Origin: Clostridiales bacterium
GTDB lineage: Bacteria; Bacillota; Clostridia; Christensenellales; UBA1242
Assembly (NCBI GenBank): GCA_015055535.1
Contig: SVIA01000002.1
Coordinates: forward strand, 16,314-80,313
Length of the DNA: 64,000 nucleotides
Direction of reading: 5' to 3'
A model generated the notes under the pieces. The model was given only the letters and a program-made list of their open reading frames with translations, had not been told where the DNA came from and ran no database searches. Made by a program: the position numbers and the translations under genes. Position 1 is the first letter of the stretch. Each line of letters opens with the position of its first letter. This document shows positions 3,089-25,421 of this stretch, piece by piece.

Positions 3089-3118
3089 ATTTAAAAAATA
3101 AGTTTGAAAGGGGATTTT

Positions 3119-5269: not shown

Positions 5270-5429
5270 TTTTAAAGTTTGTTTAAAAATATAATTGATA
5301 AAAAATGCAATAAATTTTTAAAATGAATTATTAAAAACTATAACTTGAATAATTTTCTAGTTATAAATACTGTTTTATTAATACAATAATTTAAAACTTG
5401 TGTTATAATGTTTGTGTTTTGGAGGAATT

Positions 5430-7434: not shown

Positions 7435-9096
7435 TTAAATTTTTTTACTCGAGCTTTGTTTTCTTTTTGTTAATTCCTTTTTAAATTTAATAATTAATAC
7501 GATTAGTATTAATATACTTATAATCATTAGAAAAATTGTTAGAGGAATATAATAAATTTCATCGTGATAAACAAATTTAGTTTCAACAAAACCTTTATAA
7601 ATGGTGTTATTTATTAATATTTCAACTTCAGTTAAATTATTGTAATTATTTATAACTTTTACTTTTGTTGTTTTATTAAAACTCATTATAATATTATCTT
7701 TATTTAAATTATCATATAAATTAATTTTTGTTTCTTCTCCAAATAATTTTAATTTAGCATTTGTATTAAAATATAAATTAACATAAGATAATTCGGTATT
7801 TAATACTTCTTCATTTAAAACATAAATGTAATTATTATCGAGTTTAATTTCTAAAAACAAACAATTATCTAATAATATTTCTCTTGTTACAGTATATTGT
7901 TCATTATAAATTAATTTGTTTTGCAAAGTATTTTCCAGCGTATTTGTAGGATATTTATAATAATTAATATCATTTCTAATTGGTAAAACAGTGTAGTTTG
8001 TATTTGTTAAAGTTTTATAGGTTAAAAACTTATTTTCTAAATAGCCAATAAATTGGGTGTTATTATTTAAATATAATACATAAGTAAAGTCTATACCAGC
8101 ATTTTGTATGCTAGCCAGTTTAATTATTTCATCTCCACTTTGTAATTTTAACAAACATTCATTAGAATATGGATTTTTTAATAAATTACAAGTATTATTA
8201 ATAGTAAATATATCTATTTGGCTTGTTAAAAGTTCAGGATTATTTATATCTACTGGGGGATCAAATGTTGAAATATCACTTGCGAAATTTTCACATACTG
8301 TTATTTTGTTATTTAAAAAATAATAAATTTTACCATTTTCTAAATTTATATTATATTCGCTTCCTTTGGGTAATTCTATACTTGCTATTTCTGATAAATT
8401 GGTGTTAAATTTTAAAATTTCATCATTACACACTAAATATATATAATTTAAAGCATCGCTAAAAATTTCATAACAATCTTTTTCTACAGTAATGTTAATA
8501 TTATTTATTGTTAAAGTATTGTTTTGCAATATTACAATTTCATTTAAATTATTTAAATATGAAATTTTACTATTAGATAATTGTAAATTGTTTTTAACTA
8601 TTTCAAAATTATCCATTGATGAATTGGCTTTTAAAATATATCCATGTGTTTCATCCACTAAGTAAACATTAGAATATATGTCTTCTGTAATATAAGTAAT
8701 ATTGCCTAACAATTCAAATGTTGTATTGTTTTTAATATGTTGAAATATTTTTATAAAATTAAAGTTGGAATCAAAAAATTGTAAACGATTTAAATTATCT
8801 AGCACTACAAATTCGCCATTTTTTAAAACTTTAAAAAATTTAATTTCAGTAAATTTACCATCGGTATTTCCGTATTCTCCATAAGTAGTTACTATGTTGT
8901 TATTAAAATGTTCAATTTTATTTGTTAATTTGTTTACAGTATAAAAATTTGTTTCATTATATATTTTATAATTAAAATAATTTGTTGTATTATAGTTATC
9001 TATAATTTGCTCTTCAGCAAAAAGTGGAGAATTAAAAGAAATTCCCCCTAAAAAGAGAAGACAAATAAATAAAATAATACCTAAAAATTTTCTCAT
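7435..9096 (-). CDS. membrane-anchored surface protein with possible NHL-type repeats and SH3b-like modules
   Basis: The likely start is the Met of MRKFLGIILFICLLFLGG (signal/anchor) at 9096. A segment reading GEYGNTDGKFTEIKFF..VVLDNLNRLQFFD looks NHL-like. Several ..GYLENKFL / ..GFVETKFV modules look SH3b-like. The C-terminus has a TM helix (IPLTIFLMIISILILIVLII) and a basic tail. A TGTTATAAT box lies 6 nt upstream of this ATG and there is no SD. Confidence 0.55.
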   Translation of the reverse strand: MRKFLGIILFICLLFLGGISFNSPLFAEEQIIDNYNTTNYFNYKIYNETNFYTVNKLTNKIEHFNNNIVTTYGEYGNTDGKFTEIKFFKVLKNGEFVVLDNLNRLQFFDSNFNFIKIFQHIKNNTTFELLGNITYITEDIYSNVYLVDETHGYILKANSSMDNFEIVKNNLQLSNSKISYLNNLNEIVILQNNTLTINNINITVEKDCYEIFSDALNYIYLVCNDEILKFNTNLSEIASIELPKGSEYNINLENGKIYYFLNNKITVCENFASDISTFDPPVDINNPELLTSQIDIFTINNTCNLLKNPYSNECLLKLQSGDEIIKLASIQNAGIDFTYVLYLNNNTQFIGYLENKFLTYKTLTNTNYTVLPIRNDINYYKYPTNTLENTLQNKLIYNEQYTVTREILLDNCLFLEIKLDNNYIYVLNEEVLNTELSYVNLYFNTNAKLKLFGEETKINLYDNLNKDNIIMSFNKTTKVKVINNYNNLTEVEILINNTIYKGFVETKFVYHDEIYYIPLTIFLMIISILILIVLIIKFKKELTKRKQSSSKKI

Positions 9097-9182
9097 ATTT
9101 GTATTATAACAAATTTTGAACAATTTGTATATAATTTTTTATATTTTGGCGAAAATTTACAAAAAACGCAAATTTTGCAATA

Positions 9183-9227: not shown

Positions 9228-9257
9228 TTGACACTCTAAGAAATGTTAATTTATAAT
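9228..9257 (+). promoter_or_regulatory. sigma-A type promoter for the 9311 gene
   Basis: TTGACA (9228-9233), 18 nt spacer, TATAAT (9252-9257). Confidence 0.5.
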
Positions 9258-9310: not shown

Positions 9311-9865
9311 ATGAAGTTAAGAATTTGGAGTAAAACATTGTTAAATGTATATGGTTGTTTGTTTAGATTAACTAAAGAAATTGATAAAATAGTTTTGGGT
9401 TTTGGGTTAAATAGTGCTTTTTATAATGGAGTAAGTAAAACTTATAGGGATATAAATAAGATAATTGAACTTACTGATAGGAAAGTAACATTAATAAATA
9501 TAAAAGTTTTAATTGAGCGCTGTTTATCAAGTTTAGATGATGTTTCGTGTAAAATATTAACTTTAAAATTTGTAGATAAAGTGTCTAGCGAAACAATAAT
9601 TTCAACGCTTAATATTAAAAGAAGAACTTTTTTTAGAAAATACGTGCAAGCCATAAATAAATTTGCTAATCAACTTTTGGTTAATGGTTATGATAGCGAT
9701 GCTATGTTTAAACTGATTAAAGGAGAAACTTGGATTGAAGAAGTATACAGAACATATTTCGAAAAAGAAATTAGCAAAAAAGTAGAACCTGAAATTTCTA
9801 AATATAGTATATATAGTCTGGCAATTAATAACTTAAAAAAAGAAAAGTACATTTCAATTTGTTAA
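9311..9865 (+). CDS. sigma-70 region-4-like HTH protein, candidate phage late-gene activator (DUF1492/RinA/ArpU style)
   Basis: GGAGG SD. The segment LSSLDDVSCKILTLKFVDKVSSETIISTLNIKRRTFFRKYVQAINKFANQL matches the region-4 pattern (..r.iL.lRyi....eIa..l.is.rtv.r....Al.kf). It sits just upstream of the terminase cluster. Confidence 0.5.
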   Translation: MKLRIWSKTLLNVYGCLFRLTKEIDKIVLGFGLNSAFYNGVSKTYRDINKIIELTDRKVTLINIKVLIERCLSSLDDVSCKILTLKFVDKVSSETIISTLNIKRRTFFRKYVQAINKFANQLLVNGYDSDAMFKLIKGETWIEEVYRTYFEKEISKKVEPEISKYSIYSLAINNLKKEKYISIC

Positions 9866-10584
9866 TATTTTTTAAAACCTTTTAAAAGAATAAAAGACAA
9901 AATTATTACAGGTAGAGAAATTACTAATATTATTATAGTTTGAGTTGATAAATTTAAATTTAACAATGTAATAATGTTATTTTTAGAAACATAGTTAGAA
10001 GTTATTTCATTATTTTGAAGTATTGGTGATAAGTTATTTGTAAAGCTAGAGTGAATGTAGCCTGCAATTAATTTATTATTGTTTTCTATTTTACAATAAT
10101 ACCAAACATTACCACTATTTTTATAAATTTCTTCTGCGTAAATTTTTCCATAATATAATACCTTTGTTTGAGGCTCTAATTTTTCTAAAATAAAACTTTC
10201 ATTATTTTGCGCTTCTGAAAATAGATTAGTTGATTTTATTATATCAAAAGTAACATTTAACAAATATGGGTTTTGTATTGTTTCATTAACCAAATTTATT
10301 GCTGATTTTTCGATATAACCAGTTAAATCTAAATATTGTACATAATAAAAATCATTTTCTTCAGCTATAACTTTAACAAAATAACTTTCTTCAAGTAAAA
10401 AATATAAATTAGATGTATCGTTTATTTGTGTTGGAGTTTTTTTTAAATAACAATTATTTACAATTACTTTTCCGTAAATATCATTATTCGTGTAAACAGA
10501 ATCTGTTCCGTTTAATGAAAAAAGTATATAACTACAGCATAAAACATATACAATTATTGTAAGTATTATAAAATTTTTTTTCAT
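9862..10584 (-). CDS. membrane-anchored protein with two SH3b-like domains
   Basis: N-terminal anchor is FIILTIIVYVLCCSYILF. Two modules end in TGYIEKS and AGYIHSSF. The C-terminal TM is IIILVISLPVIILSFILL. AAAGGA SD is present. Confidence 0.55.
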   Translation of the reverse strand: MKKNFIILTIIVYVLCCSYILFSLNGTDSVYTNNDIYGKVIVNNCYLKKTPTQINDTSNLYFLLEESYFVKVIAEENDFYYVQYLDLTGYIEKSAINLVNETIQNPYLLNVTFDIIKSTNLFSEAQNNESFILEKLEPQTKVLYYGKIYAEEIYKNSGNVWYYCKIENNNKLIAGYIHSSFTNNLSPILQNNEITSNYVSKNNIITLLNLNLSTQTIIILVISLPVIILSFILLKGFKKY

Positions 10585-10668
10585 TTTTTATTCCTTTATT
10601 CTTTATCTTAATTATATTTCTTCTTTTATTATTTTATACAAAAAAAGTTTTTTCAAACAGGGTAAGAT

Positions 10669-12096
10669 ATGAATATAATTAATAAAATTAAATTACTTAA
10701 CTTAGAGATTAAAAGGCGTGAAGATAACAATATTTTAAAAAAATATAATACAGGAAAAGTTGTTCATGAAAAACAACTTTTATTTCATAAATCAATTAAA
10801 AAAAATCGTTGGGTTTTTGGTGGTAATCGAACAGGAAAAACTGAATGTGGAGCTGTTGAATGTATATATTTAGCAAGAGGAATTCATCCGTATAAAGAAA
10901 ATAAAAAAGATACTTCTGGTTGGGTTGTAAGCTTATCGACTCAAGTTCAAAGAGATGTTGCTCAAAGTAAAATTTTACATTATTTAAATCCTGATTGGAT
11001 AGAAGATATTGTTATGCTTAGCGGGAGAAAAGATAATTTAAAAAACGGTATTATAGACAAAATTTTAGTTAAAAATGTTTTCGGTGGAATAAGTACAATT
11101 GGTTTTAAAAGTTGTGACCAAGGTAGGGAAAAATTTCAAGGTACAAGCTTAGATTATGTTTGGTTTGATGAAGAACCACCTTATGATATTTATTTAGAAT
11201 GCAAAATGAGAGTTATTGATAAATGCGGAGAAATATTTGGAACAATGACACCACTTAAAGGGTTAACATGGGTATATAATAACATTTATTTAAATGAAAA
11301 TAATGATGATGAAGTTTGGCATATTACTTTAAGTTGGCAAGATAATCCTTTTTTAGATAAAAAAGAAATTGAAAGTTTAACAAAAATAATGAGCAAAGAT
11401 GAACTTGATAGTAGATGTTATGGTAATTTTAGCTTTTCGGGTGGACTTGTTTACTCTAACTTTAAAGAAGAATTTAATGTAATTGAACCATTTAATGTAC
11501 CAAGCGAGTGGTACGATAATATTAGTATTGATCCGGGCTTAAAAAACCCGTTATCGTGTCATTTTTATGCAATAGATTATGATGGAAATATTTATGTAAT
11601 TGCTGAACATTATGAAGCGGATAAAGATATTGAGTATCATGCTGAACATATTTTAAAAATTGCTGATAAATTAAACTGGCCAAGGAATTCTATGGGAAAA
11701 TTAAATGCTTTAATAGATAGTGCTGCTAATCAAAAAACTTTAGCTAGTAGCAAAAGTGTTGTAGATTTATTTTATGATTTTAATATTATCTGTAATGCAA
11801 AAGTTAACAAAGATTTATTTTCTGGCATTCAAAGAGTGAAAAATTTAATTTGTTCAGCTAGTGGAGAAAGAAAACTATTTATTTTTTCTACTTGTGTAAA
11901 TTTAATTAGAGAAATTAAAAGTTATTTTTGGGGAAAAGCAGATGTGCCCATTAAAAAAGATGACCATGCTTTAGACGAATTGAGATATTATGTTATGAAT
12001 AGACCCGAAAATAAAAAACCAATTATAAAAAATCAAATTCAAAAAGATAAAGAAAGATTATTTTTAAAAATTAAAAGAGATAGGTATGGAAGATAA
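10669..12096 (+). CDS. phage terminase large subunit
   Basis: Walker A is FGGNRTGKTECGA and Walker B is LDYVWFDEEP. The C-terminal nuclease-like half includes IDPG.., ..IDSAA.. and KDDHALDELRY. Position and size (475 aa) are typical for TerL. Confidence 0.85.
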   Translation: MNIINKIKLLNLEIKRREDNNILKKYNTGKVVHEKQLLFHKSIKKNRWVFGGNRTGKTECGAVECIYLARGIHPYKENKKDTSGWVVSLSTQVQRDVAQSKILHYLNPDWIEDIVMLSGRKDNLKNGIIDKILVKNVFGGISTIGFKSCDQGREKFQGTSLDYVWFDEEPPYDIYLECKMRVIDKCGEIFGTMTPLKGLTWVYNNIYLNENNDDEVWHITLSWQDNPFLDKKEIESLTKIMSKDELDSRCYGNFSFSGGLVYSNFKEEFNVIEPFNVPSEWYDNISIDPGLKNPLSCHFYAIDYDGNIYVIAEHYEADKDIEYHAEHILKIADKLNWPRNSMGKLNALIDSAANQKTLASSKSVVDLFYDFNIICNAKVNKDLFSGIQRVKNLICSASGERKLFIFSTCVNLIREIKSYFWGKADVPIKKDDHALDELRYYVMNRPENKKPIIKNQIQKDKERLFLKIKRDRYGR

Positions 12097-12382
12097 ACTA
12101 AATTATAATGAAAAAATTAATAAAGCATTAATAAAAAGAGCTTTGGGTTATTCTAGCAAAGAAGTAATAGAAGAATTTACACAATCTGATGGTGATTTAA
12201 TTTTGACCAAAAAAAAAGTTACTAAAAAAAATATTCCACCAGATATGTCGGCTGTTAAAATATTACTTTCATTTTATTCTAATAACGATTTAGATTTTTC
12301 TAATATGACTGATGAAGAGCTAATATTAGAGAGAGACAAACTACTTAACTTATTAAAGGATGATGAAAATGATAGAAATTAA
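12086..12382 (+). CDS. small-terminase-like fragment (tentative), otherwise hypothetical
   Basis: ALIKRALGYSSKEVIEEF...KKKVTKKNIPPDMSAVKILL resembles the GY..E....K..PPD..A..fwL segment of one TerS family. The protein lacks an N-terminal HTH half. The ORF overlaps the terL stop by 11 nt. Confidence 0.3.
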   Translation: MEDKLNYNEKINKALIKRALGYSSKEVIEEFTQSDGDLILTKKKVTKKNIPPDMSAVKILLSFYSNNDLDFSNMTDEELILERDKLLNLLKDDENDRN

Positions 12383-12575
12383 TGAAAAGATAACTATTTG
12401 TGATAAATGTAAACAAAAGAATAAAAATTATCAAATAATTTTAAATAAAAAGAAAATTTTTTTATGTAATGATTGTTTGAATTTGTTATATAAAAGTATT
12501 GGCAAATTTGTTGTGCCAAAAAGTCCTCAAAGTATTTTAAAAAAAGACAATAAAATTAAATATGAACGATTTTAA
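12369..12575 (+). CDS. small zinc-ribbon protein
   Basis: CDKC...CNDC four-Cys arrangement. The ATG at 12369 is best spaced from the AAAGGA SD; 12360 and 12363 are alternatives. Confidence 0.5.
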   Translation: MIEINEKITICDKCKQKNKNYQIILNKKKIFLCNDCLNLLYKSIGKFVVPKSPQSILKKDNKIKYERF

Positions 12576-12589
12576 ATTAGGAGAACAAA

Positions 12590-14479
12590 ATGAAAACAAA
12601 TAATAAACTTATTAAACAAGCAAAAGATAAATATAGAGAAAATTTAGTTAGGGAAACTATTGAAGATTTTAAACAAAGACAATTAGAAAGAAAGCCTATT
12701 GAAGCGGGTTGGATTTTAAATATGAACTTTTTATATGGAAATCAGTATTGTAATATATCTTCAATGGGTGATGTTGAAGATTATTCTAAACAATATTTTT
12801 GGCAAGAAAGAGAAGTGTATAACCATATTTCTCCAATAATAGAAACAAGAATTTCAAGGCTTAGTCAAATAAGACCTAAAATGAGTGTTGTTCCTAGCAC
12901 TAATAGTGAACAAGATATGAGTACAGCAAAGGTATCTAAAAATTTAATTAATGCAATATATCATAAATTAAATATAAGTGATAAAATTGTTAACTGTACT
13001 CATTTTAGTGAGGTTTGTGGAACTGGTTTTTATAAAGTTTATTGGGATAATAAAAAAGGCAAAAAATTAGCAAGTATTAATAATGATGAATATATTTATG
13101 AAGGTGATATTGCGGTAGATGTAGTATCACCTTTTGAAATATTTCCAGATAGTAATACACATGAAGATGTTGATGATTGTATGAGTATTATTCATGCAAA
13201 AAGTATGCATAAAGATGTTGTTAAACAAATTTGGGGAATAGAAGAACTTGGTGAAGATATTGATGTTTACAGCTTAGATAACATTTCAAATGCTGGTGGA
13301 CTTGGTTATAGTGCTACAACTAACAAAGTTATTTCTAGTGTTAAACATGACCAAGTTTTAGTAATTGAAAAATATGTAGCTCCAACGGTAGATTATCCTG
13401 ATGGACGACTTATTATTGTTGCTGGTAAAACTTTGGTTTATGATGGAAAACTTCCGTATGTAAATAGAGAAGATGGAAAAAGAGGTTTCCCTTTTATTAA
13501 ACAAGTTTCTTTAAAAACTCCAAATTCATTTTTTGGTAGTAGTATTATAGAAAGAATTATACCTGTTCAAAGAAGTTATAATGCGGTTAAAAATCGTAAG
13601 CACGAATATTTAAACCGTCTTTCAATGGGTATTTTAACTGTTGAGGATGGTTCTGTTGATTATGAAAATTTGGAAGAAGAAGGACTTTGCCCTGGTAAAG
13701 TTTTGGTATATAGACAAGGTAGTAATGCGCCAAAGATTATGGACAATGGAAGTATTCCTACAGAATTTAAAGAGGAAGAAGAAAAACTATTAAGTGAATT
13801 TAGTCAAATTAGTGGTATTAGCGATTTTATGTCTAATAATCAGATATCTATTAGCAATGCTTCTGGTGTAGCATTAGAGTTATTAATGGAGCAAGATACT
13901 AACAGATTAAACATTACAGCAGAGCAAATTAAATTTGCAATTAAAAGTATGGCCGCAAGTATTTTAAAACTTTATAAACAATTTACTACTTCTTCTAGAA
14001 TTGCTAAAGTTATTGGGAAAGATGGAAGTATTGAAATGTTTTATTTTCAAAAAAGTGATATTTCTAGTGATGATATTATTTTTGAAACAGAAAGTGAAAT
14101 TGGTGAAACAAAAGCGCAAAAACGAAGCTTGATTTTTGAACTTTTAAATGCAGGGCTTTTATATAATGAAGATGGTAAAATGTCTACTAGAATTAAAGCA
14201 AAAACTTTAGAAATGCTTGGTTTTGGAATGTGGGATACTCAGTATGATTTAGAAGAATTACACATGAAAAAAGCAGGAAAGGAACATTTGTCTTTAATAA
14301 ACACAAATAATATAGATAATGCTTTAGAAATTGATAATCATAATCTTCACATAGACGAACACGTTGCTTTTATGTTAAGTGAAGAATATAGTAAAGCTGT
14401 TAAATTGAATCCTGAAATTCAAGATAAAATTTTAAAACACATTAAAGAGCATAAAAATTTTTTAAAAAGTGAGGAATAA
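12590..14479 (+). CDS. phage portal protein
   Basis: A 629-aa ORF lies between the terminase and scaffold/capsid genes. AGGAG SD is present. The sequence has the general character of portal proteins (NMNFLYGNQY.. and an acidic C-terminus). Confidence 0.75.
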   Translation: MKTNNKLIKQAKDKYRENLVRETIEDFKQRQLERKPIEAGWILNMNFLYGNQYCNISSMGDVEDYSKQYFWQEREVYNHISPIIETRISRLSQIRPKMSVVPSTNSEQDMSTAKVSKNLINAIYHKLNISDKIVNCTHFSEVCGTGFYKVYWDNKKGKKLASINNDEYIYEGDIAVDVVSPFEIFPDSNTHEDVDDCMSIIHAKSMHKDVVKQIWGIEELGEDIDVYSLDNISNAGGLGYSATTNKVISSVKHDQVLVIEKYVAPTVDYPDGRLIIVAGKTLVYDGKLPYVNREDGKRGFPFIKQVSLKTPNSFFGSSIIERIIPVQRSYNAVKNRKHEYLNRLSMGILTVEDGSVDYENLEEEGLCPGKVLVYRQGSNAPKIMDNGSIPTEFKEEEEKLLSEFSQISGISDFMSNNQISISNASGVALELLMEQDTNRLNITAEQIKFAIKSMAASILKLYKQFTTSSRIAKVIGKDGSIEMFYFQKSDISSDDIIFETESEIGETKAQKRSLIFELLNAGLLYNEDGKMSTRIKAKTLEMLGFGMWDTQYDLEELHMKKAGKEHLSLINTNNIDNALEIDNHNLHIDEHVAFMLSEEYSKAVKLNPEIQDKILKHIKEHKNFLKSEE

Positions 14480-14482
14480 TTT

Positions 14483-15130
14483 ATGGAAAAAAATGAAGAA
14501 CAACTATTAGAAAACCAAAACGCTAACCTAAATGCAGTTGAGCATAGTGAAACAATAAATGTTGAAAATATTGAACCGAGCAAAAATGAGTTTTCTGGCT
14601 CTTCAACTAAAAAATTTAAAAGCGTAGAGGCATTAAGTAAAGCTTACGAAAATTTAGAAAGAGAATTTACAAAAAAATGCCAAAAGCTAAATGAACTTAT
14701 GAGCGAAAATAATACGGAAGTGTTACCGCAATATAAGAAAGAAGATTGGCTTGTTAAAGTTAGCAATTTTATTGCTGAAAATAAATTTGCCAAAGATTAT
14801 ACTAAACAAATTGCAGATGTTTTATTAGAAGATGAGGCCCTTGCTAAAAAAGAAGATGCATTATCTTTGGCTTACTCTAAGGTTTTAAACGATAATTTTA
14901 AAACTAAAGAAGAATTAGCTGAAGATGAAGATTTTTTAAATCAGTTTGTTTATAAAAATGAAAAAATTAAAACTAAAATTATTGAAGATTATTTATTAGA
15001 AATTAATAATAATCAAACTGTTCCGTTATTATCTAAAGTTAAAGGGACAAGCAGTGTATCTAGCCCGAAATTTATACCCAAAAGTTTAAAAGAGGCTAGT
15101 AGATACGCTGAGCAAATTTTAAAAAAATAA
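14483..15130 (+). CDS. phage capsid scaffolding protein
   Basis: The protein is 215 aa, acidic and helical. The motif FKSVEALSKAYENLEREFTKKCQKLNEL is typical of scaffold proteins. It lies immediately upstream of the major capsid gene. Confidence 0.65.
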   Translation: MEKNEEQLLENQNANLNAVEHSETINVENIEPSKNEFSGSSTKKFKSVEALSKAYENLEREFTKKCQKLNELMSENNTEVLPQYKKEDWLVKVSNFIAENKFAKDYTKQIADVLLEDEALAKKEDALSLAYSKVLNDNFKTKEELAEDEDFLNQFVYKNEKIKTKIIEDYLLEINNNQTVPLLSKVKGTSSVSSPKFIPKSLKEASRYAEQILKK

Positions 15131-15139
15131 GGAGATATT

Positions 15140-16321
15140 ATGGTTACAATTAACAGTGCACAAGATGCATTAAAAAGTGCATATTTAAGCGTGGTTAGTG
15201 AAGCATTAAATGTTAATGCTAATCCACTACTTGCTAAAATAAATCAAACTACTAATGATGTTTGGGGAAAAGAAATTATTAAACTTACAAGCTATGGTGT
15301 AAACGGCGGTATTGGTGCTGGTAGCGAAACAGGAGATCTTCCTAGTAGTGCTGGTAACAATTATGTTAAATTTGTATCTAGCTTAAAAAACTTATATGGT
15401 ACTATTGAAATAAGTGATAAAGCAATTAGAGCTAGCGAAACAAATGCTGGTGCTTTTGTTAACTTATTAAATGCTGAAATGGAAGGATTAATTAAAGCTT
15501 CTAATTACAACTTCGGAAGAATGTTGTTTGGTGATGGCTCAGGAAAACTTGCTAATGTTGTAGGTGCGGGTTCAAATTATTTTACTGTTGATAGTATTAA
15601 ATTTTTAATTGAAGGATTAAAAGTAGATTATTATAAAGTAGGTACTGTTACAGATGTTAAACAAAATACTAATAGCATGAGAATTGTTAGCATTGATAGA
15701 GCCAATAAAAGAGTTTATTTCGATTGTGATTTAATTCTTCCTGATGGTGAAGAATATAACTATTATTTAACTGTTCAAAATAGTAAAGATTTAGAATTAA
15801 CTGGTCTTGGTGCTATATTTAAAACTACTGGCTCTTTATATGGGGTTGATAGAACTCAACATAATTGGATGATGCCAGTTATTAAAGAGGCTAGCGAAAA
15901 TAAATTAACTGAAGATTTAATGCAATCTTGTATAGATGAATTAGAAGAAGTTGCAGGCTCAAATGTTGATTACATTACTTGCAGTAGTGACGTTAAAAGA
16001 TTATATCAAAAATTACTTACTGAAGGTAGAAAAAATATTGATATTATGGATTTACAAGGTGGTTATAAAGCTATTTCTTATAATGGTATTCCTGTTGTTT
16101 CTGATAGATTTGTTGAAGATGGAACTATGTATTTATTAAATACTAAAGACTTCGAACTTCATCAACTTTGCGATTGGAGATGGTTAGAAGATGAAAGCGG
16201 TAGAATTATTCGTCAAAAAGCTGGTTTCCCTTCATATACTGCTACTCTAGTTAAATATGCAGATTTAATTTGTTCTAGACCAAATGGTCAAGCAAAAATA
16301 ACTGGTATAACCACTATTTAA
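15140..16321 (+). CDS. phage major capsid protein (HK97-fold type, inferred)
   Basis: A 393-aa ORF follows the scaffold gene. AAGGAG SD is present. The sequence is Gly/Ala-rich compared with its neighbours, and position and size are typical. Confidence 0.75.
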   Translation: MVTINSAQDALKSAYLSVVSEALNVNANPLLAKINQTTNDVWGKEIIKLTSYGVNGGIGAGSETGDLPSSAGNNYVKFVSSLKNLYGTIEISDKAIRASETNAGAFVNLLNAEMEGLIKASNYNFGRMLFGDGSGKLANVVGAGSNYFTVDSIKFLIEGLKVDYYKVGTVTDVKQNTNSMRIVSIDRANKRVYFDCDLILPDGEEYNYYLTVQNSKDLELTGLGAIFKTTGSLYGVDRTQHNWMMPVIKEASENKLTEDLMQSCIDELEEVAGSNVDYITCSSDVKRLYQKLLTEGRKNIDIMDLQGGYKAISYNGIPVVSDRFVEDGTMYLLNTKDFELHQLCDWRWLEDESGRIIRQKAGFPSYTATLVKYADLICSRPNGQAKITGITTI

Positions 16322-16338
16322 TTATTTTTTGGAGAGTT

Positions 16339-16605
16339 ATGATTGAGATTTTTACTGATTTATTTGATATCGTTAAAAAAATAAAATATATTGATAATAA
16401 TTATCGTGTTTTTAGAAATATTACAAAACATAGATTTGAAATTTATTATCAAAATGGATTAAATCTTAATTTAGAATTAATATTGCCCTATAATAACCTA
16501 GATTATAGGGCTATTAATTTAATTAATAAAAGTCGAGTAGAAAATGCTGATGAGTTGTTTGATTACGTAGATAATTTTAACGACAAACTAGGATTGAAGG
16601 AGTAA
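16339..16605 (+). CDS. hypothetical phage protein
   Basis: GGAGAG SD. It is packed between the capsid gene and the next ORF. No motif was recognised. Confidence 0.5.
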   Translation: MIEIFTDLFDIVKKIKYIDNNYRVFRNITKHRFEIYYQNGLNLNLELILPYNNLDYRAINLINKSRVENADELFDYVDNFNDKLGLKE

Positions 16606-16606
16606 T

Positions 16607-17203
16607 ATGAAATTAAGAGAAGTTATAAAATTATCTAGTATTATGCTTAATATTGATGAAGTTCTAAATGGTGATAAAATTTATGATGAAAGCTACGATT
16701 TAATTGATGAAAAAAGTATTAATACTAGTAATAGTGTAGAAGAAAGAAATTTAAATTTGCTTGTTAAATGTTTTAATCTTGTTTATACCGAACTTGCAAC
16801 TGATTATTTTCCACTAATTACTATGGAAACTATAAAAATCGAAAATGGAAGTTTTAACTTAAATAATTTAAGTAATATTTTTTATAAAATTGTTAAAATT
16901 GAATGTAACGATAATTTAGTGGATAAGTTTGATATTTATGATAATATTTTATATTTAAAAAATGGAGAGTATAAAATTGTTTATGCGTATACGCCAGTTA
17001 AAGTGTCTTTAAATAGTGAACTTAATACTTTTAACGGTAAAATTTCTGATAGAGTTTTTGCTTATGGTTTAAACAAAGAATATTGTTTTATTTCTGGTTT
17101 ATATAGTGAAGCAGAAAGTTATAGAACTAAATTTGAAGAATGCTTAAAATCGGCAAGCGTTTTAAAACATAGTATTAAACTTCCTAAAAGAAGGTGGAAT
17201 TAA
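16607..17203 (+). CDS. hypothetical phage protein (head-tail adaptor/connector candidate by position)
   Basis: AAGGAG SD and a 1-nt gap to the previous stop. The role is suggested by position only. Confidence 0.45.
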   Translation: MKLREVIKLSSIMLNIDEVLNGDKIYDESYDLIDEKSINTSNSVEERNLNLLVKCFNLVYTELATDYFPLITMETIKIENGSFNLNNLSNIFYKIVKIECNDNLVDKFDIYDNILYLKNGEYKIVYAYTPVKVSLNSELNTFNGKISDRVFAYGLNKEYCFISGLYSEAESYRTKFEECLKSASVLKHSIKLPKRRWN

Positions 17204-18738
17204 TGTTTTATTCAAAAAAAAGCAAATATCCAGAACTTAAAAATATTGTTGTAGATATAACCGATTTTTCTAAAGGGCTAAATTTTAATGTTGAAGAAAA
17301 TATTTTGGATCCGAACTATTGTGTTAATGCTTATAACTTTGCATATAAAAAAGGAGTTTTAACAGAAGGTTATGGCTTTGAAACTTTAACATGTCCTAAT
17401 TATGAAGACGAAGTAATTACTGAAGTTTATTTAAATCCGGATCATCCTGTGCCAGAACTAGCAAACGTTTGGTTTTATAAAATGTACGATGATGAACAAG
17501 GTGGTAGAATTGACAAACTTATGTATTATGCAGAAAATAATACAAGGTTATATTTTAATAGAGCTATGACAATAGCTCCAATGATTAATAAATTTACTGA
17601 AATTATGTTTCCTGAAAAACCTTGTTTTACTTATAATTATAAATTTGAAGGTTATGATTATAATTTAATTGGAAGTGAACAATTGGGCGTTGTTATGTTT
17701 GATGGTTATATTGAACCTGTTAAAATAAGTACTTGTCCAAACATGAGCAGTTTATGTTTGGATAAAGGAAAAATGTTTTGCACTAGTTATGGTGATAGAA
17801 ATTGTATTTATTATCATGTTGGAGATAATATATTAGAATGGACAACTGAAAGTGATGATTATAATGGAAAAATCGAAATGAATGACAATAGAGGAAAAAT
17901 AAACAAAGTCTTTTCATTTTTGGGTTATGTTTATGCAATTCGAGATTATGGCATTAGTAAAATTACAAATTATGAAGGAAAACTTAAATTTGATATTTCA
18001 CATTTAAGTTTGTATGGTAATAAAATTTATGAAAATACAACAAATATTTGTGGTGATAAAATGTTTATGCTTACTAAAGATGGAATTGCTAGTTTTAATG
18101 GGGTTACAAGTAAAATTTTAAATTTAGGAGTTAATGATTTTTTAAAAGGCGTTAATAATGATAATGCGATTGCCGTATTTCATGCTGGCAAATATTATTT
18201 GGCTTGTAAATTAAACTTTAACGATAATACTTTAGTGGGTTGCGAAAGTTTAGAAAGTGGTTATAAAAACAATGCTTTAATTATTTTAGATGTTCAAACT
18301 TTAGATTATGATATTGTTAGAGGAATAGATGTCGCTGATATGGAAAGCATACAGATTAATAAAATGGATAAAGTGGCATTAGTTTTAAATAGTATTAAAA
18401 GAGATTTGCCATTACAATTAACTGATAATGGTTGTTTTTATCAAACACCTTTAAAAAAAGAATGGAATTCACCACTAACTGATTTGGGATATTCAAATAA
18501 AATAAAATTAATTAAAGATGTTAGTTTATTAAGCTTATATGATATAACTTTAACTATTTATACTGAAAAAGAAAGTAAAACATTTATAATACCAGGGAAT
18601 AACACTCTTAGTAAAATTAAAGTTAATTTAAAAGGTAAACAAATAGGTGTTAAAATAGAAAGTGAAACTGAAAAAGCTTATGTTAGCAATTTAAAATTTA
18701 ATATAGATTTATTAGATTATGAATTTACAAGATTTTAA
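17203..18738 (+). CDS. hypothetical phage structural protein (tail/nozzle/fibre candidate)
   Basis: The ATG at 17203 follows an AAGGTGG SD and overlaps the previous stop. It is the largest unassigned ORF in the cluster (511 aa). No motif was recognised. Confidence 0.5.
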   Translation: MFYSKKSKYPELKNIVVDITDFSKGLNFNVEENILDPNYCVNAYNFAYKKGVLTEGYGFETLTCPNYEDEVITEVYLNPDHPVPELANVWFYKMYDDEQGGRIDKLMYYAENNTRLYFNRAMTIAPMINKFTEIMFPEKPCFTYNYKFEGYDYNLIGSEQLGVVMFDGYIEPVKISTCPNMSSLCLDKGKMFCTSYGDRNCIYYHVGDNILEWTTESDDYNGKIEMNDNRGKINKVFSFLGYVYAIRDYGISKITNYEGKLKFDISHLSLYGNKIYENTTNICGDKMFMLTKDGIASFNGVTSKILNLGVNDFLKGVNNDNAIAVFHAGKYYLACKLNFNDNTLVGCESLESGYKNNALIILDVQTLDYDIVRGIDVADMESIQINKMDKVALVLNSIKRDLPLQLTDNGCFYQTPLKKEWNSPLTDLGYSNKIKLIKDVSLLSLYDITLTIYTEKESKTFIIPGNNTLSKIKVNLKGKQIGVKIESETEKAYVSNLKFNIDLLDYEFTRF

Positions 18739-18793
18739 AACATTAAAAAATAGTTTTAACCATTTGTTTTTTGTAAATAATGTGGAGGAAATT

Positions 18794-18979
18794 ATGAGTT
18801 ACAAAGAAGATTTAAATAAAATTTTGAATGCATTCAATTTTGCAAAAACACAAGAAATTAGTGCATTAAGTAAAGATGAATTATTAAAACTAAAAAATGA
18901 AGCACAATTAAATTTAGATATAGAAAAATTAAAACAAATTAATAAAGAATTAGATAGAAAAAGTTTTGACGAAGAATAA
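18794..18979 (+). CDS. small coiled-coil protein, hypothetical
   Basis: The ATG at 18794 follows a GGAGG SD. The upstream ATG at 18719 lacks one. Confidence 0.45.
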   Translation: MSYKEDLNKILNAFNFAKTQEISALSKDELLKLKNEAQLNLDIEKLKQINKELDRKSFDEE

Positions 18980-19007
18980 ATTTTTAAAAGTTTCAATAAT
19001 TAAAGAT

Positions 19008-19247
19008 ATGTGGGAAAAGATAGTTAATTTGGCTATTCAAAATGGACTATTTGCAGTTTTGTTTTTAGGACTTTTAGTATATATTTTAAAAGATAGTTCT
19101 AAAAGAGAAAAAAAATATCAACAAACTATTGAAAGTTTAAATCGAAGTTTAAACATTGTTGAAAATATTGAAGAAGATGTAAAAGAAATAAAACAAAATG
19201 TTAATAGTAAAATAACTAGAACAAAAAAGCAAATTAAACAAGGATAA
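19008..19247 (+). CDS. BhlA/UviB-family holin-like protein
   Basis: IQNGLFAVLFLGLLVYILKDSSKREKKYQQTIESLN closely parallels the BhlA core as I recall it (..QGPFAVLFCWLLFYVMKTSKERESKLYNQIDS..). It has a single TM followed by a coiled tail. Confidence 0.65.
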   Translation: MWEKIVNLAIQNGLFAVLFLGLLVYILKDSSKREKKYQQTIESLNRSLNIVENIEEDVKEIKQNVNSKITRTKKQIKQG

Positions 19248-19252
19248 AAATT

Positions 19253-19510
19253 ATGGAAAAATTTTTAAATTATAAATTTTTAATGACTGTTCTTGCTAGT
19301 ATTATTGTTTTATTAGAAGTTTTAGTTAATATTTTTAAAGTAAATATTAACATTGAAGCAATTATAAGTGTTAGCATGGCTATTGTTGGCGTTTTAATTG
19401 CAATAGGTTTAATAAAAAAGAATAAAGACGATAAAACTATAGAAACGGTTGAAGATTTAAAAGAATTATTAGAAGAAAATAAAGAAGAAGAAAAAAATGA
19501 TAAAGAATAA
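19253..19510 (+). CDS. two-TM holin-like protein
   Basis: The protein is 85 aa with two hydrophobic helices (LMTVLASIIVLLEVLV and ISVSMAIVGVLIAIGLI) and a highly charged C-terminus. AAGGA SD is present. Confidence 0.55.
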   Translation: MEKFLNYKFLMTVLASIIVLLEVLVNIFKVNINIEAIISVSMAIVGVLIAIGLIKKNKDDKTIETVEDLKELLEENKEEEKNDKE

Positions 19511-19518
19511 ACTAAAAA

Positions 19519-19550
19519 AGAGAAAATGAACATTCATTTTCTCTTTTTTT
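19519..19550 (+). terminator. strong rho-independent terminator closing the phage-like cluster
   Basis: AGAGAAAATGAA / TTCATTTTCTCT perfect arms followed by a T-run. Confidence 0.7.
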
Positions 19551-19625
19551 ATTGATAAAGAATATTTTAATTTTTTTATATTATAAAACATTTTCTTTAA
19601 AAAATTTATATGTTATAATATAGGT

Positions 19626-20858
19626 ATGGATAATAAAAATACGCAAAAAATGCTTTTATTAATAAATGGGTTAAAAATAATACTAACAATTTTCACAAGT
19701 ACTTTTTTTACATCTTATATTGTTGCTTTAAATAAAAGTAATATTTTTGGAGCGGGCATTATAAATGTTGGTAGTTTTTATTTATCGCAATATTTAATTT
19801 ATATTCTGACTTATTTGTTATTAAGTAGATTTGTGGCTAAAAGTAATCGTGTTAATTTTTTAAGATTGGCAATTATAATAAATGGATTATTGCTAATATC
19901 TTTAGTGTTTTTTGGTAATTATCTTTTAAATTGGATTTTTTTAGCAGGTGCTTTAATAGGTGTATCAGATGCTTTTTATAACTCTAGTTATTTAGTAATG
20001 AAAAACGAGGTTGTAAAAAAGAAAAATATAAACAATTTTAATATTAAAGTTTCGGTTTTAACCAATTTAATTAATATTATAATTCCAATAATTTTGGGTT
20101 ATTTAATAGATTTAACAACATTTAATTATATAGCTATTTATGTTATTGTTATTGTTGTTTTTCAACTTATATTTTCATTTTTTATATCGCCGTATCGCCC
20201 AAAATTACCAAAATTTAAACTAAAAGAGTTTTGTTTATATTTAAAAAATAATGCTGAAGATAGAAGTAAATTAAAATGGAATTATTTAAATTTGTTTTTT
20301 GCTGGATTTAAAAACACTTATAAAGTTTTAATAGTAATTTTAACAATTTATGTTTTTGAAACTAACTTTAGCTTAGGAATACTAACTTCAATATTTTCTA
20401 TAATAACTACAATTTTGTTAATTATTTTTAAAAAATTTGAATATCACAAAAAAATGAATAAACTTTTAGTTTTTATGATAGTAAGTATACTGCCTATAAT
20501 TTTATGTGTTTTATTTATAATTTTACAAAATTCATTAATTTTAATTGCATTAAATTTTTCTTTAACTTTAGCTATTCAGCTTTCAGAATATGCATCTAAT
20601 TCTAGTAGAGATGCAATTATAAAATGTTTAAATAAGTACGAATATATTGTAGAACATCAGTTTTTGTCTGAAGCTTTTATGTGCTTAAGTAGAATATTAT
20701 CTTATACAATATTTATAATAGTTGGCTTATTTCAAAATATAACACTATTTACAATACTTTTAATAATTTTGATAAGTTTAAATCCAATAAAATTTTATTT
20801 TATGTACAAATTAGAAACGGTAAGAGAAAATTTGAGTAAAGAATTAAATAATATATAA
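19626..20858 (+). CDS. polytopic membrane protein (MFS-like transporter, tentative)
   Basis: About 11-12 hydrophobic helices over 410 aa. There is no SD; a TGTTATAAT box ends 6 nt before the ATG. Confidence 0.45.
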   Translation: MDNKNTQKMLLLINGLKIILTIFTSTFFTSYIVALNKSNIFGAGIINVGSFYLSQYLIYILTYLLLSRFVAKSNRVNFLRLAIIINGLLLISLVFFGNYLLNWIFLAGALIGVSDAFYNSSYLVMKNEVVKKKNINNFNIKVSVLTNLINIIIPIILGYLIDLTTFNYIAIYVIVIVVFQLIFSFFISPYRPKLPKFKLKEFCLYLKNNAEDRSKLKWNYLNLFFAGFKNTYKVLIVILTIYVFETNFSLGILTSIFSIITTILLIIFKKFEYHKKMNKLLVFMIVSILPIILCVLFIILQNSLILIALNFSLTLAIQLSEYASNSSRDAIIKCLNKYEYIVEHQFLSEAFMCLSRILSYTIFIIVGLFQNITLFTILLIILISLNPIKFYFMYKLETVRENLSKELNNI

Positions 20859-20886
20859 AAAACACCTCAATTGAGGTATTTTTTGT
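20857..20886. terminator. bidirectional terminator
   Basis: ACCTCAA/TTGAGGT palindrome flanked by an A-run and a T-run, between convergent genes. Confidence 0.6.
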
Positions 20887-20887
20887 T

Positions 20888-22255: not shown

Positions 22256-22419
22256 AATTTACTCCTTTAATTATAGTTTACTATAAAACAAAAAATTTAC
22301 AAAATAATATGTTAAATTTTATTAAATTTAAATTAATATATTAAATAGATTAAAATAGCTTATTAATGTATATTGACAATTTTAAATGAAAATTGTATAA
22401 TAAAAAAGAGGTGGTAAAA

Positions 22420-23121: not shown

Positions 23122-23209
23122 TAATTATAAGTTTAGTTAAGCTAATTTAAATCAGCTTGTTATATTATAATATAAGTTTTAGATTATAAATTTAGAGAAA
23201 AGGGCAAAA

Positions 23210-23722: not shown

Positions 23723-23768
23723 TGCACTCTGTTTTTTATTTAGTATTAAATTTATAATAATAAATTGT

Positions 23769-24263: not shown

Positions 24264-24417
24264 AATTTTACCTCTAATTAAATAATAACATAATTTTTAA
24301 AATAAATCAATATCTAATGAAAATAAATATAAGCTCAGTCTAAAATATTTAAATTAAGCTATAATTAATGTATATTTGTGTGTTTATATACATACATTAA
24401 TGCATATTAATTTAATA

Positions 24418-25044: not shown

Positions 25045-25141
25045 ATTTTCTCTCTTTCTTATTATATCATATTTTTACAAAAAATTCAAAGTAATCAAAA
25101 AAATAAAAAAAGTACGAATTTATGTTCGTACAATTTACTAT

Positions 25142-25399: not shown

Positions 25400-25421
25400 G
25401 CTGCTAACAAAGGAGAAAGCT

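Follow-up and report, generated by a model that had tools for sequence, protein, structure and literature searches.

A conserved podovirus-like gene cluster in gut Clostridia chromosomes, probably a domesticated element of the gene-transfer-agent type

Genomic analysis of a 64-kb window, part of an 84-kb clostridial contig, identified a chromosomal cluster of 10–12 kb that carries phage packaging, head, and holin genes together with a predicted short tail. We consider this cluster probably to be a host-domesticated phage, namely a vertically inherited, podovirus-like element of the gene-transfer-agent (GTA) type. A small head, a packaging motor, a stubby tail, and holins, accompanied by no replication or integration genes and kept intact across hundreds of Clostridia species from the gut, together point to a domesticated GTA-like particle. 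From its genes, we infer packaging, release, and transfer by the element, as well as the expression of its operon and the choice of packaged DNA.

Layout, regulator, and head genes

Twelve intact, co-directional ORFs occupy positions 10669–19510 of the plus strand, with overlaps or gaps of at most 23 nt in the window's ORF list, and their coordinates agree with the packed layout given in the initial annotation. The operon appears to be closed by a terminator-like hairpin (19514–19549, no strand assigned) lying 4 nt past the last stop codon, with T/A runs on both sides; a terminator had been placed here before, and the hairpin is present, but its stem has 16 pairs, not 12. Housekeeping genes flank the cluster on both sides, in the window as well as in relatives on contigs of 0.3–0.7 Mb. 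Codon usage of the element is close to that of housekeeping genes (RSCU r 0.96; GC3 0.135 versus 0.142).

Upstream of the operon, the ORF at 9311–9865 (plus strand) matches late-gene transcriptional activators of the RinA/ArpU/DUF1492 type, which are sigma region 4-like (Pfam DUF1492, E 2e-4, above the cut-off; transcription-regulator PHROGs phrog_36, E 5e-9, and phrog_248, E 8e-6; a weak match to TIGR01636 phage_rinA). A RinA/DUF1492-type regulator occupies the same position in 54 loci, with dN/dS of 0.12–0.17; this identity corrects the first reading of the ORF. Located 5′ of the gene, a sigma-70-type promoter-like site (TTGACA-18-TATAAT; 9228–9257, plus strand) is its candidate promoter by a 12/12 consensus match.

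Two membrane protein genes accompany the regulator. The first, at 9862–10584, is divergent from the terminase gene, belongs to the conserved block, and sits between regulator and terminase in 58 loci (dN/dS 0.27–0.29). In its 240-aa product, an SH3b-like ectodomain lies between N-terminal and C-terminal transmembrane (TM) segments; 39 of 60 family members likewise have a TM segment at each end, and the precomputed annotation of locus L001 contains a faint SH3_3 match. Both the minus-strand placement and the membrane nature of this product revise the first reading. The second gene (7435–9123, minus strand) encodes a 562-aa envelope protein, again with N- and C-terminal TM segments, and is conserved next to the cluster, its membership in the element being uncertain. 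A large minus-strand ORF (538–917 aa) lies immediately 5′ of the regulator in 30 of the 44 loci with enough upstream sequence, and 28 of these 30 ORFs carry TM segments at both ends. The 562-aa family matches SH3_3, GW, NHL, and beta-propeller Pfam models, no member matches a Pfam hydrolase domain, and dN/dS against close relatives is 0.37–0.39.

The operon begins with the large terminase TerL, comprising ATPase and nuclease (10669–12096; Terminase_6N, E 2.7e-13; Terminase_6C; phrog_2, E 2e-27). Across 64 homologues, conservation of the Walker A, Walker B (WFDEE), and TMTP motifs and of the nuclease Asp residues is 100%, and dN/dS is 0.09–0.12. The adjacent 98-aa protein (12086–12382), previously called a TerS-like fragment, is no fragment: it represents a full-length family conserved in about 70 related loci, with invariant A19, G21, E26, K44, and D53. 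Its TerS PHROG matches are weak (phrog_309, E 1.6e-4, at profile positions 196–242 of 319; phrog_23444, E 4e-3), a PDB profile search gave no match, and the protein contains no recognisable DNA-binding domain; it is possibly the small terminase subunit. Next comes a 71-aa protein with a four-cysteine zinc ribbon (12360–12575; CxxC...CxxC in translation), encoded in the corresponding place in 57 related loci.

The portal protein (12590–14479) is P22/SU10-like (P22_portal, E 1e-25; SU10_portal, E 2e-10; phrog_156, E 4e-41), with dN/dS of 0.10–0.15. It is followed by a 215-aa product (14483–15130) that recurs in each of the 83 other first-set loci and matches no family in Pfam, PHROG, or NCBIfam; its position between portal and capsid genes and its acidic, helical, low-complexity sequence suggest a scaffolding protein. 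The major capsid protein (MCP; 15140–16321) has the HK97 fold and belongs to the "Podo" family (NCBIfam NF033394 capsid_maj_Podo, E 9e-75; phrog_14242, E 8e-50). It has more than 6600 homologues, the 120 best sharing at least 59% identity, and its dN/dS is 0.14–0.25. The 88-aa protein encoded next (16339–16605), which follows MCP in 47 related loci, yields no family or PDB match, is conserved at dN/dS of 0.13–0.23, and is possibly a head-completion or neck accessory.

Predicted short tail, holins, and genes not found

Structure prediction and fold search assigned the two genes that follow. The AF2 model of the 198-aa protein (16607–17203; pLDDT 85.4) shows a podovirus head-to-tail adaptor fold. 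Its top Foldseek matches are podovirus tail, neck, and portal-adaptor chains (KHP30 7wmp_m, E 3e-6; Pa223 9nwi_A; DEV 9bgm_B; SU10; N4; crAss001), and the similar size of the matched chains and their placement in head-to-tail complexes agree with an adaptor. The model of the 511-aa protein (17203–18738; pLDDT 87.9, pTM 0.88), a beta-propeller with a C-terminal beta-sandwich, shows a tail hub (nozzle) fold of the P22 gp10/T7 gp12 class. Foldseek matches in the PDB include the Pa223 tail (9nwi_Y, E 1e-18, TM 0.65), VP1 (8zkk_O), SU10, GP4, the PhiM1 nozzle, the P22 tail complex (9jg6_a), and T7 gp12, and BFVD matches carry the annotation "P22 Gp10". The adaptor is full-length in 71 of 71 loci and the hub in 65 of 66, with dN/dS of 0.14–0.31 for the pair. 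Given these predicted folds, the initial description of an island with no tail was therefore wrong. The minimal podovirus-like particle that it had also entertained, with these proteins as adaptor and nozzle, gains support from the structural comparison of both products.

In P22, the slot after the hub is that of the gene for the needle, gp26. Here it holds an 86-aa acidic coiled-coil protein (18719–18979), possibly serving, by gene position, as a short needle or plug. This protein has homologues in L005 and L084 only and evolves fast (dN/dS 0.4–0.7); in other clades, the slot holds proteins of 185–821 aa. In this clade, we found neither a fibre nor a receptor-binding protein, the coiled coil being the only occupant of the post-hub slot.

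The last two genes encode holins. The first (18966–19247) is of the BhlA/UviB type (Holin_BhlA, E 2.6e-16, matching from residue 15; phrog_2429, E 1e-16), and its translation probably begins from the ATG at 19008. In clostridia, holins of this type also serve non-lytic export of toxins or bacteriocins. The second (19253–19510) matches the holin family phrog_297 (E 6e-6) and, below the cut-off, Phage_holin_1 (E 1.2e-3). The TerL, portal, MCP, and holin assignments made at the outset are thus upheld by family matches far beyond chance.

Outside the cluster, Pfam and PHROG scans, which covered nearly all remaining ORFs of at least 80 aa in the window, gave matches to chromosomal genes only. These scans revealed no integrase, tape measure, tube or sheath, baseplate, or replication gene, and no endolysin in the cluster or the rest of the window, confirming the absences reported earlier. 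No repressor pair was found in the window, we saw no att-like direct repeats on either side of the block, and no tail or lysogeny module lies outside it in these 64 kb of the 84-kb contig. Precomputed Pfam annotation likewise contains no integrase or replication domains in the flanks of L001–L003 and L084–L086.

Distribution, synteny, and selection

MCP relatives occur in at least 569 GTDB species representatives of uncultured gut Clostridia/Christensenellales. The best 80 loci come from 80 different assemblies, one copy each, and share an identical core order: regulator, minus-strand 240-aa membrane protein, TerL, 98-aa protein, zinc ribbon, portal, scaffold, MCP, 88-aa protein, adaptor, and hub. 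Synteny of the block is constant across the order-level clade. An upstream ABC gene and membrane protein are common to L084, L085, and L005, the downstream flank is common to L084, L004, and L005, and RNase J lies 7–9 kb downstream of MCP in 23 loci. What close relatives hold at this site is again the compact block and not a full prophage.

This synteny bears on whether the cluster supplies the structural genes of a phage or prophage that is still active, with the other genes lying beyond the window or split off by rearrangement. Such a reading is very unlikely, even though the view covers only part of the contig and the more distant relatives L134 and L144 (44–47% MCP identity) reside on IMG/VR contigs of 48–64 kb that carry additional structural genes. 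The housekeeping flanks, the recurrence of the compact block in close relatives, and conservation at a housekeeping rate, which is not phage-like, all argue against it. Among 50,697 phage genomes, we found no close sequenced phage: MCP and portal match actinophages only, with identities not above 28%, and the hub has no match.

The main element genes evolve under purifying selection (dN/dS about 0.1–0.3). TerL, portal, and MCP are 79–81% identical to their L084 counterparts, compared with 81% for GluRS, and mean distances are smaller for MCP (0.35) and TerL (0.37) than for the neighbouring RNase J (0.46). Divergence of three element proteins tracks that of RNase J, itself a physically linked gene (Mantel r 0.78–0.81, p ≤ 5e-4). 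Vertical inheritance is the best reading of these sequence comparisons.

The same data effectively refute the reading as a functionless cryptic prophage in decay, which we regard as highly improbable. Missing integrase, replication, long-tail, and endolysin genes would suit decay, as would the split genes in 2 of 80 loci (MCP in L026, hub in L051). Frameshifts are nevertheless rare among the 80 species loci: MCP is intact in 79, and roughly 97% or more of species-level genomes carry the genes intact. Conservation at least equal to that of GluRS and RNase J, order-level synteny, and invariant TerL catalytic residues weigh further against decay.

Least probable is a capsid-forming phage satellite (cf-PICI-like), which would make its own heads and rely on a helper phage for tails and induction. 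The compact arrangement of head and packaging genes beside a RinA-like regulator resembles such an element, and 61 IMG/VR "viral" contigs carry the block; these contigs are, however, mostly fragments of 4–19 kb that span the block wholly or in part. The cluster encodes its own adaptor and hub, has no detected integrase, att repeats, or replication module, and keeps one chromosomal locus while co-diverging with host genes, not the patchy distribution of a mobile element. Of the candidates first named, the GTA-like particle thus fits best, combining a fixed locus, vertical inheritance, and purifying selection with no mobility or replication genes.

Proposed particle cycle and relation to known agents

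In a GTA-type cycle, the activator would be switched on, probably in a subpopulation of cells, and would drive the late operon. Portal, scaffold, and capsid protein would assemble into procapsids, which TerL and the 98-aa TerS-like protein, itself without a DNA-binding domain, would fill by a headful mechanism with available DNA, mostly host chromosome. Adaptor and hub would close the portal and form the stubby tail, perhaps plugged by the coiled coil. The two holins would permeabilise the membrane, and cell lysis, aided by host autolysins or an endolysin encoded elsewhere, would free particles able to deliver DNA to related cells. The element as a unit could no longer replicate, integrate, or move.

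A domesticated particle might instead be kept for uses other than transfer—programmed lysis or eDNA release, a PBSX-like killer or decoy, or phage interference—with packaged DNA as an undelivered by-product. We consider this unlikely; the conservation evidence applies to it equally and is silent on which function is selected. It would accord with the missing receptor-binding protein and with BhlA/UviB-type holins, a type listed by PHROGs in its category of bacteriocin production or immunity. PBSX provides a precedent, as a particle that packages DNA without transferring it (discussed in PMC12946183). Conversely, the complete packaging motor ranks among the best-conserved parts, its ATPase and nuclease motifs being invariant, a pattern difficult to account for were packaging irrelevant; the particle would also have a podovirus hub, intact with its adaptor in nearly all loci, and no contractile killing device.

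The GTA-type reading also finds a possible counterpart in reported particles. GTA-like packaging of random 4–6 kb chromosomal fragments has been described in Christensenellaceae MAGs, which the gene-cluster search of that study left out (PMC12946183). Our cluster is a candidate source of this so far unexplained packaging, on circumstantial grounds. In Faecalibacterium, such particles are made by FpGTA I, a 10.5-kb podovirus-type operon (PMC12946183). The layout of FpGTA (2026) is similar to that of the present cluster, which appears to represent a different lineage.

Gene content of the cluster and its surroundings

The window is strongly AT-rich (GC 19–32%), and 12 ORFs within it run in one direction from 10669 to 19510, with neighbouring ORFs overlapping or sitting no more than 23 nt apart. 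Family searches identified in this block, all on the + strand, TerL (Terminase_6N, E 2.7e-13; phrog_2, E 2e-27), a portal (P22_portal, E 1e-25; phrog_156, E 4e-41; also the SU10 Pfam model), the major capsid protein (MCP; phrog_14242, E 8e-50; NCBIfam NF033394 capsid_maj_Podo, E 9e-75), a BhlA holin (E 2.6e-16) and a second holin (phrog_297, E 6e-6). The terminator position, 3′ of the last stop codon, is occupied by a hairpin (19514–19549) whose stem spans 16 bp. Upstream, a perfect TTGACA-18-TATAAT consensus match precedes the gene for a late activator (9311–9865, +), which family matches assign to the RinA/ArpU/DUF1492 type.

Family scans of nearly all other ORFs of at least 80 aa revealed that the rest of the window is chromosomal. 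The flanks encode nucleic-acid enzymes (an AddA-like helicase-nuclease, RNase J and DinB), translation proteins (GluRS, HisRS, two class I tRNA synthetases and a translation factor), transporters of the ABC and MFS types, a GerA/B/C germination operon, an M18 aminopeptidase and a RelA-like protein. Among nearly all ORFs of at least 80 aa in the 64-kb window, the scans detected neither integrase nor endolysin, and no genes for a tape measure, for a tube or sheath, or for replication; they likewise returned no primase and no repressor-integrase module. The initial annotation had described a compact, co-directional head-and-packaging set lacking these genes, and its account of the ORF layout and of the missing genes is confirmed by the layout, the family matches and the window-wide scans. 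A search for att-like sites around the cluster gave only imperfect AT-rich repeats and no exact flanking repeats. The only tRNA gene in the window lies 5.6 kb from the cluster; tRNA-Arg was also the sole Rfam match, with no riboswitch or leader RNA near the operon.

Two minus-strand genes beside the cluster, one for a 562-aa protein (7435–9123) and one for the 240-aa membrane protein m240 (9862–10584, one TM segment at either end), encode envelope proteins with TM segments at both ends that are co-inherited with the cluster, homologues being present in the related loci L001–L083. The 562-aa family has beta-propeller/NHL and SH3b/GW wall-binding domains, and neither protein resembles a known phage gene. 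Two holins are encoded inside the main operon; searches of the cluster, of the window and of the conserved membrane proteins next to the cluster gave no endolysin domain. Both envelope proteins were considered as the missing endolysin and rejected: the 29 scanned homologues of the 562-aa protein contained SH3b, GW, NHL and propeller domains only, with no hydrolase, and the 240-aa protein gave no hydrolase match.

Upstream of TerL (10585–10668), the motifs AATTATATTTCTT and TTTTATACAA are common to close relatives, and a TTGTC element stands 5–25 nt before the annotated TerL start in many distant relatives. Judged from sequence, these motifs may represent a late promoter or activator box. No family-wide Ltr box or late-promoter motif was established upstream of TerL, given the ambiguity of start codons and the AT-richness of the DNA. 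Inside the gene for the 88-aa protein p88 (16339–16605), GC-rich sequence at 16485–16511 forms a perfect palindrome (10-bp stem) in surroundings of about 25% GC. It was rejected as an internal attenuator: it is partly kept in the related locus L085 and lost in L084, and such poor conservation indicates that it is probably non-functional or due to chance.

Several further ORFs in the flanks attracted attention. A 708-aa ORF (3104–5230) after the AddA-like helicase-nuclease gene, with a C-terminal Lys/Ala/Thr/Ser-rich repeat (5109–5204), matched nothing in Pfam, PHROGs or NCBIfam and could represent a divergent AddB partner. A further two proteins, each about 350 aa long and with an XRE-type HTH (5412–6491 and 55816–56859), carry extended C-terminal regions without any family match. 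The former lies 2.8 kb upstream of the regulator; no such gene was called beside the cluster in L084 or L085, and the profile search for it also caught short HTH-like ORFs in two other loci. A gene for a DUF6883 protein (46198–46737) directly follows the DinB-type polymerase gene.

Predicted short-tail module

Comparison by sequence with Pfam, PHROGs, NCBIfam, the PDB and 50,697 phage genomes left the 511-aa product encoded at 17203–18738 unmatched. Sequence searches of the PDB with this protein and with the MCP, and profile searches with the families of p88 and the 98-aa protein p98, yielded nothing usable, and the portal matched by sequence, weakly, the GP4 portal alone; usable PDB matches came from fold comparison only. 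The AlphaFold model of the 511-aa protein, built from an alignment of 50 homologues, is all-beta (pLDDT 87.9, pTM 0.88). Foldseek matched it to podovirus tail hub or nozzle proteins, namely those of Pa223 (E 1e-18, TM 0.65), VP1, SU10, GP4 and PhiM1, the P22 tail complex and T7 gp12, and its matches among viral models were annotated "P22 Gp10". For the 198-aa product (16607–17203; model pLDDT 85.4), the matches were tail or neck chains of KHP30, Pa223, DEV, SU10, N4 and crAss001, and, as these chains are of similar size, the predicted structure fits a head-to-tail adaptor.

Podovirus tail-machine parts are thus present, as judged at the family level for the portal (Pfam models) and at the fold level for the adaptor and the hub. 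The models suggest that the P22/SU10-type portal, the adaptor and the hub would stack as they do in short-tailed phages. The initial annotation had reported no tail and had recommended a fold search of the products of 16339–18738, the 198-aa and 511-aa proteins among them. That search returned adaptor and hub/nozzle families, so the tailless description gives way to predicted adaptor and hub folds encoded within the cluster, and the minimal podovirus-like particle, which the same annotation had listed as one option, gains support from both structure prediction and fold search.

The hub gene is followed by one for an 86-aa acidic coiled coil (18719–18979), at the position of the needle in P22, to which it may be likened by that position. 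Nothing larger than 86 aa occupies this post-hub slot in the window clade. In at least 43 related loci the slot is filled by a protein of about 300 aa (a DUF7934 member in those scanned), and other relatives encode post-hub proteins of up to 821 aa, one of which (L066) matches the phrog_5302 tail protein. A truncated fibre, with the 86-aa coiled coil as what is left of the N-terminus of these larger proteins, found no support. No receptor-binding protein, tailspike or fibre was identified in the window clade. This leaves three options: the hub may do the cell binding, the genes for fibre and lysin may be encoded at another site, as in the second FpGTA locus and in RcGTA, or the particle may have no use in transfer.

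Distribution, synteny and inheritance

When GTDB species were scanned, each represented by a single genome, at least 569 of them proved to carry the cluster. The best 80 of these carriers correspond to 80 different assemblies of uncultured gut or rumen Clostridia, the more precisely named among them being mostly labelled Christensenellaceae, Christensenella, Borkfalkia, Fimimonas or Heteroclostridium. MCP homologues number more than 6600 (E ≤0.001), many of them on contigs of 0.2–1 Mb, and identity does not drop below 59% in the best 120. After clustering at 50%, the top-ranked MCP representatives were 44–55% identical to the query; since these values fall below those of all 120 closest homologues, the latter appear to occupy very few clusters. 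The broader MCP family comprises 290 clusters (E ≤1e-30).

Profile-based gene maps delineate a conserved core consisting of the regulator, m240 on the minus strand, TerL, p98, the Zn ribbon, portal, scaffold, MCP, p88, adaptor and hub. Where domain annotation of the flanks exists among the relatives, host genes lie on either side, and no integrase or replication domain occurs in the precomputed Pfam annotation for the flanks of L001–L003 and L084–L086. The closest relatives, L084, L085, L004 and L005, have MCPs 70–83% identical to the query. Upstream genes for an ABC ATPase and a large membrane protein are common to the window, L084, L085 and L005; downstream genes, among them one for a PRC-barrel protein, are common to the window, L084, L004 and L005, with GluRS also there in L084 and L005. 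In 23 more distantly related loci, RNase J lies 7–9 kb downstream of the MCP, after one or two polytopic membrane proteins, and the window homologues of these genes occur at 39198–42926.

Some loci depart from this arrangement. In the window, about 13.7 kb between the holins and the PRC-barrel gene (19600–33300) is absent from L084, L004 and L005 and is an insertion or rearrangement beside the cluster in the source genome. It contains MFS, M18 aminopeptidase and acetyltransferase genes, tRNA-Arg (25142–25218), a MerR regulator, the GerA/GerB/GerC operon (26933–30816) and a TrmA-like methyltransferase. An ORF of 730–1120 aa is inserted between the TerL and p98 genes in L043, L058, L062 and L104. 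In L126, a cytosine methyltransferase and a partly McrB-like protein (13203–19467) follow the MCP where p88, adaptor and hub are expected; these identities rule out a different tail module, and the segment looks like a restriction-type island inserted within the cluster. L093, L135, L142 and L054 have a similar post-MCP ORF pattern, which probably reflects the same type of island.

The MCP family also occurs on 61 IMG/VR contigs (L087–L147), most of which are fragments of 4–19 kb carrying the whole block or part of it. Because these contigs are labelled viral, viromics and prophage surveys probably miscount the domesticated cluster as phage. Two of them, L134 and L144, are contigs of 48–64 kb with additional structural genes and MCPs of 44–47% identity, and may be true phage relatives.

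Selection was estimated by dN/dS against the four closest relatives, at dS values of about 0.7–1.7 that are close to saturation. The ratios were 0.09–0.12 for TerL, 0.10–0.15 for the portal, 0.14–0.25 for the MCP, 0.23–0.31 for the adaptor and 0.14–0.28 for the hub. TerL, portal and MCP are 79–81% identical between the window and L084, compared with 81% for GluRS. Across 22 genomes, pairwise distances of three cluster proteins correlated with RNase J distances (Mantel r 0.81 for portal, 0.78 for MCP and 0.80 for TerL; p ≤ 5e-4), and the mean distances of MCP (0.35) and TerL (0.37) were both smaller than that of RNase J (0.46). Full-length genes predominate among the 80 species loci (MCP 79/80, hub 65/66, adaptor 71/71), the Walker A, Walker B, TMTP and nuclease residues of TerL are invariant in 64 sequences, and codon usage of the cluster is that of housekeeping genes (RSCU r 0.96). 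The sole clear core-gene disruptions in the 80 species loci, an MCP split into 242 and 152 aa in L026 and a hub split into 333 and 95 aa in L051, may reflect either genuine pseudogenes or errors in the MAG sequences.

Collectively, conservation, co-divergence, intactness and codon usage form the signature of a long-domesticated element rather than a mobile or decaying one. A temperate prophage, whether intact or decaying, was rejected: relatives carry the same block at the same locus with intact genes, and no repressor-integrase module was found in the window. The initial annotation had weighed a GTA-like particle, a satellite and a remnant, and had proposed checking close relatives for a complete prophage at this site; L084, L085, L004 and L005 carry the same block there. 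A remnant finds no support in view of rare pseudogenes, dN/dS of 0.1–0.3 and invariant TerL motifs, nor does a satellite, as integrase, exact flanking repeats and replication matches are missing from the scans and the cluster encodes a predicted adaptor and hub of its own. The GTA-like reading is favoured, both by structural and packaging genes that come without mobility or replication genes and by the vertical, purifying-selected pattern.

Candidate particle cycle and comparison with known systems

The gene set comprises what a DNA-filled podovirus-like particle and membrane opening require, and includes nothing for self-copying or moving. From this parts list, together with the folds and the evolutionary pattern, we infer expression, DNA content, release and transfer. 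The RinA/DUF1492-type activator would switch on the operon, procapsids would assemble, and DNA would be packaged non-specifically by a headful mechanism. The putative TerL partner p98 (12086–12382) matches only the C-terminal half of a TerS profile and is too small for a DNA-binding domain. The adaptor and hub would then close the particle, and the holins would mediate release.

To our knowledge, GTAs are known in detail from a handful of lineages only. The first podovirus-like GTA, FpGTA of Faecalibacterium prausnitzii, was reported only in 2026 and is the closest precedent (Borodovich et al., Nat Commun 2026, PMC12946183). Its 10.5-kb, ten-ORF operon (FpGTA I, RCH50844–RCH50853) encodes TerS, TerL, portal, scaffold, MCP and short-tail proteins, and its particles of ~40 nm, tailless or podovirus-like in appearance, contain 8.4–8.9 kb of random host DNA (PMC12946183). 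The same study described GTA-like packaging of random fragments in Christensenellaceae MAGs, with peaks at 4.1 kb (HGM11616 sp900761075) and 6.3 kb (QANA01 sp019420265), and its search for GTA-like gene clusters left out both MAGs (PMC12946183).

Tentatively, and at less than even confidence, we propose that the cluster is a second, independently domesticated podovirus-type GTA, that it has become fixed throughout an order-level group of gut Clostridia comprising Christensenellales with their relatives (at least 569 species), and that it is the source of the 4–6 kb packaging in Christensenellaceae. It would combine a minimal tail (adaptor, hub and small plug) with holin-only release and include the two wall-binding membrane proteins (7435–9123 and 9862–10584), for example as recipient receptor or release gate. 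The cluster would thereby add a second, seemingly independent podovirus-type lineage to the known GTAs. It is a defined and very widespread candidate that can be tested with existing VLP long-read data, and MCP, TerL, adaptor and hub provide a concrete gene set for checking whether it gives rise to the GTA-like DNA packaging in Christensenellaceae. It is conserved in hundreds of Christensenellales-like gut species, nearly all uncultured and of interest for host health. Chromosome-wide gene flow in these taxa is directly amenable to study with this gene set. The minimal tail, the absent endolysin and the two co-inherited envelope proteins raise testable questions on release and cell recognition.

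Accessory genes of RcGTA lie elsewhere in its genome. The cluster shares with RcGTA of Alphaproteobacteria a vertically inherited, purifying-selected set of head and packaging genes without replication or integration genes, as well as a TerS (putative here) without a DNA-binding domain. RcGTA differs in being siphovirus-like, with tube, tape-measure and baseplate genes, in belonging to another phylum and in its host-wired regulators GafA and CtrA, whereas a phage-type RinA/DUF1492 activator is found here. PBSX of Bacillus subtilis is likewise a domesticated, chromosomal phage-like element of Firmicutes with holin-based lysis (predicted here) that packages pieces of host DNA too small for the whole element, as would the cluster; unlike the cluster, it is a 28-kb myovirus-like killer particle with a contractile tail and an endolysin. 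The cf-PICIs are also small islands with their own terminase, portal, scaffold, capsid protein and late regulator, but they are mobile and possess an integrase, a replication module, att sites and borrowed helper tails, none of which were found here.

Podovirus machines (P22 gp1/gp4/gp10, SU10, Pa223, VP1, T7 gp8/gp11/gp12) share the portal family and the adaptor and hub folds, and the order adaptor, hub, small coiled coil mirrors gp4-gp10-gp26 of P22. The likeness is at the fold level only (6–15% sequence identity); tailspikes or fibres and ejection proteins were not found here, and the coiled coil has 86 aa compared with 233 aa in gp26. Among sequenced phages, those nearest to the cluster by MCP and portal are Jasminevirus actinophages (Arthrobacter phages Adat, Jasmine and Brad) and Microbacterium phage Shocker, at only 22–28% identity; matches to both proteins were confined to Jasminevirus-like actinophages and a few others, at 19–28% identity. 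In Adat, the one examined, the order of terminase, two small ORFs, portal, scaffold-slot ORF and MCP is the same, whereas Jasminevirus phages and Shocker are complete 45-kb phages of Actinobacteria with endolysin, fibre and many further genes.

Like the cluster, FpGTA is a chromosomal operon of ~10 kb with about ten ORFs in a gut member of the Clostridia, and in each of the two, genes for TerL, portal, MCP, a scaffold-slot protein and short-tail-type proteins occur without any for replication or integration. By annotation, the two differ in that the FpGTA MCP is assigned to N4-gp56, whereas the MCP here matches only NF033394 capsid_maj_Podo, and in that the FpGTA scaffold slot holds a Prp protease, whereas the 215-aa protein here has no family match. 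TerL abuts the portal in FpGTA (accession order), whereas two small conserved ORFs separate them here. FpGTA carries its holin and endolysin in a second locus together with a fibre and an RBP, whereas the holins here belong to the main operon and no such second locus (fibre, RBP, holin, endolysin) occurs within the 64-kb window. These differences in annotation point to a lineage distinct from FpGTA, and so to a possibly independent domestication.
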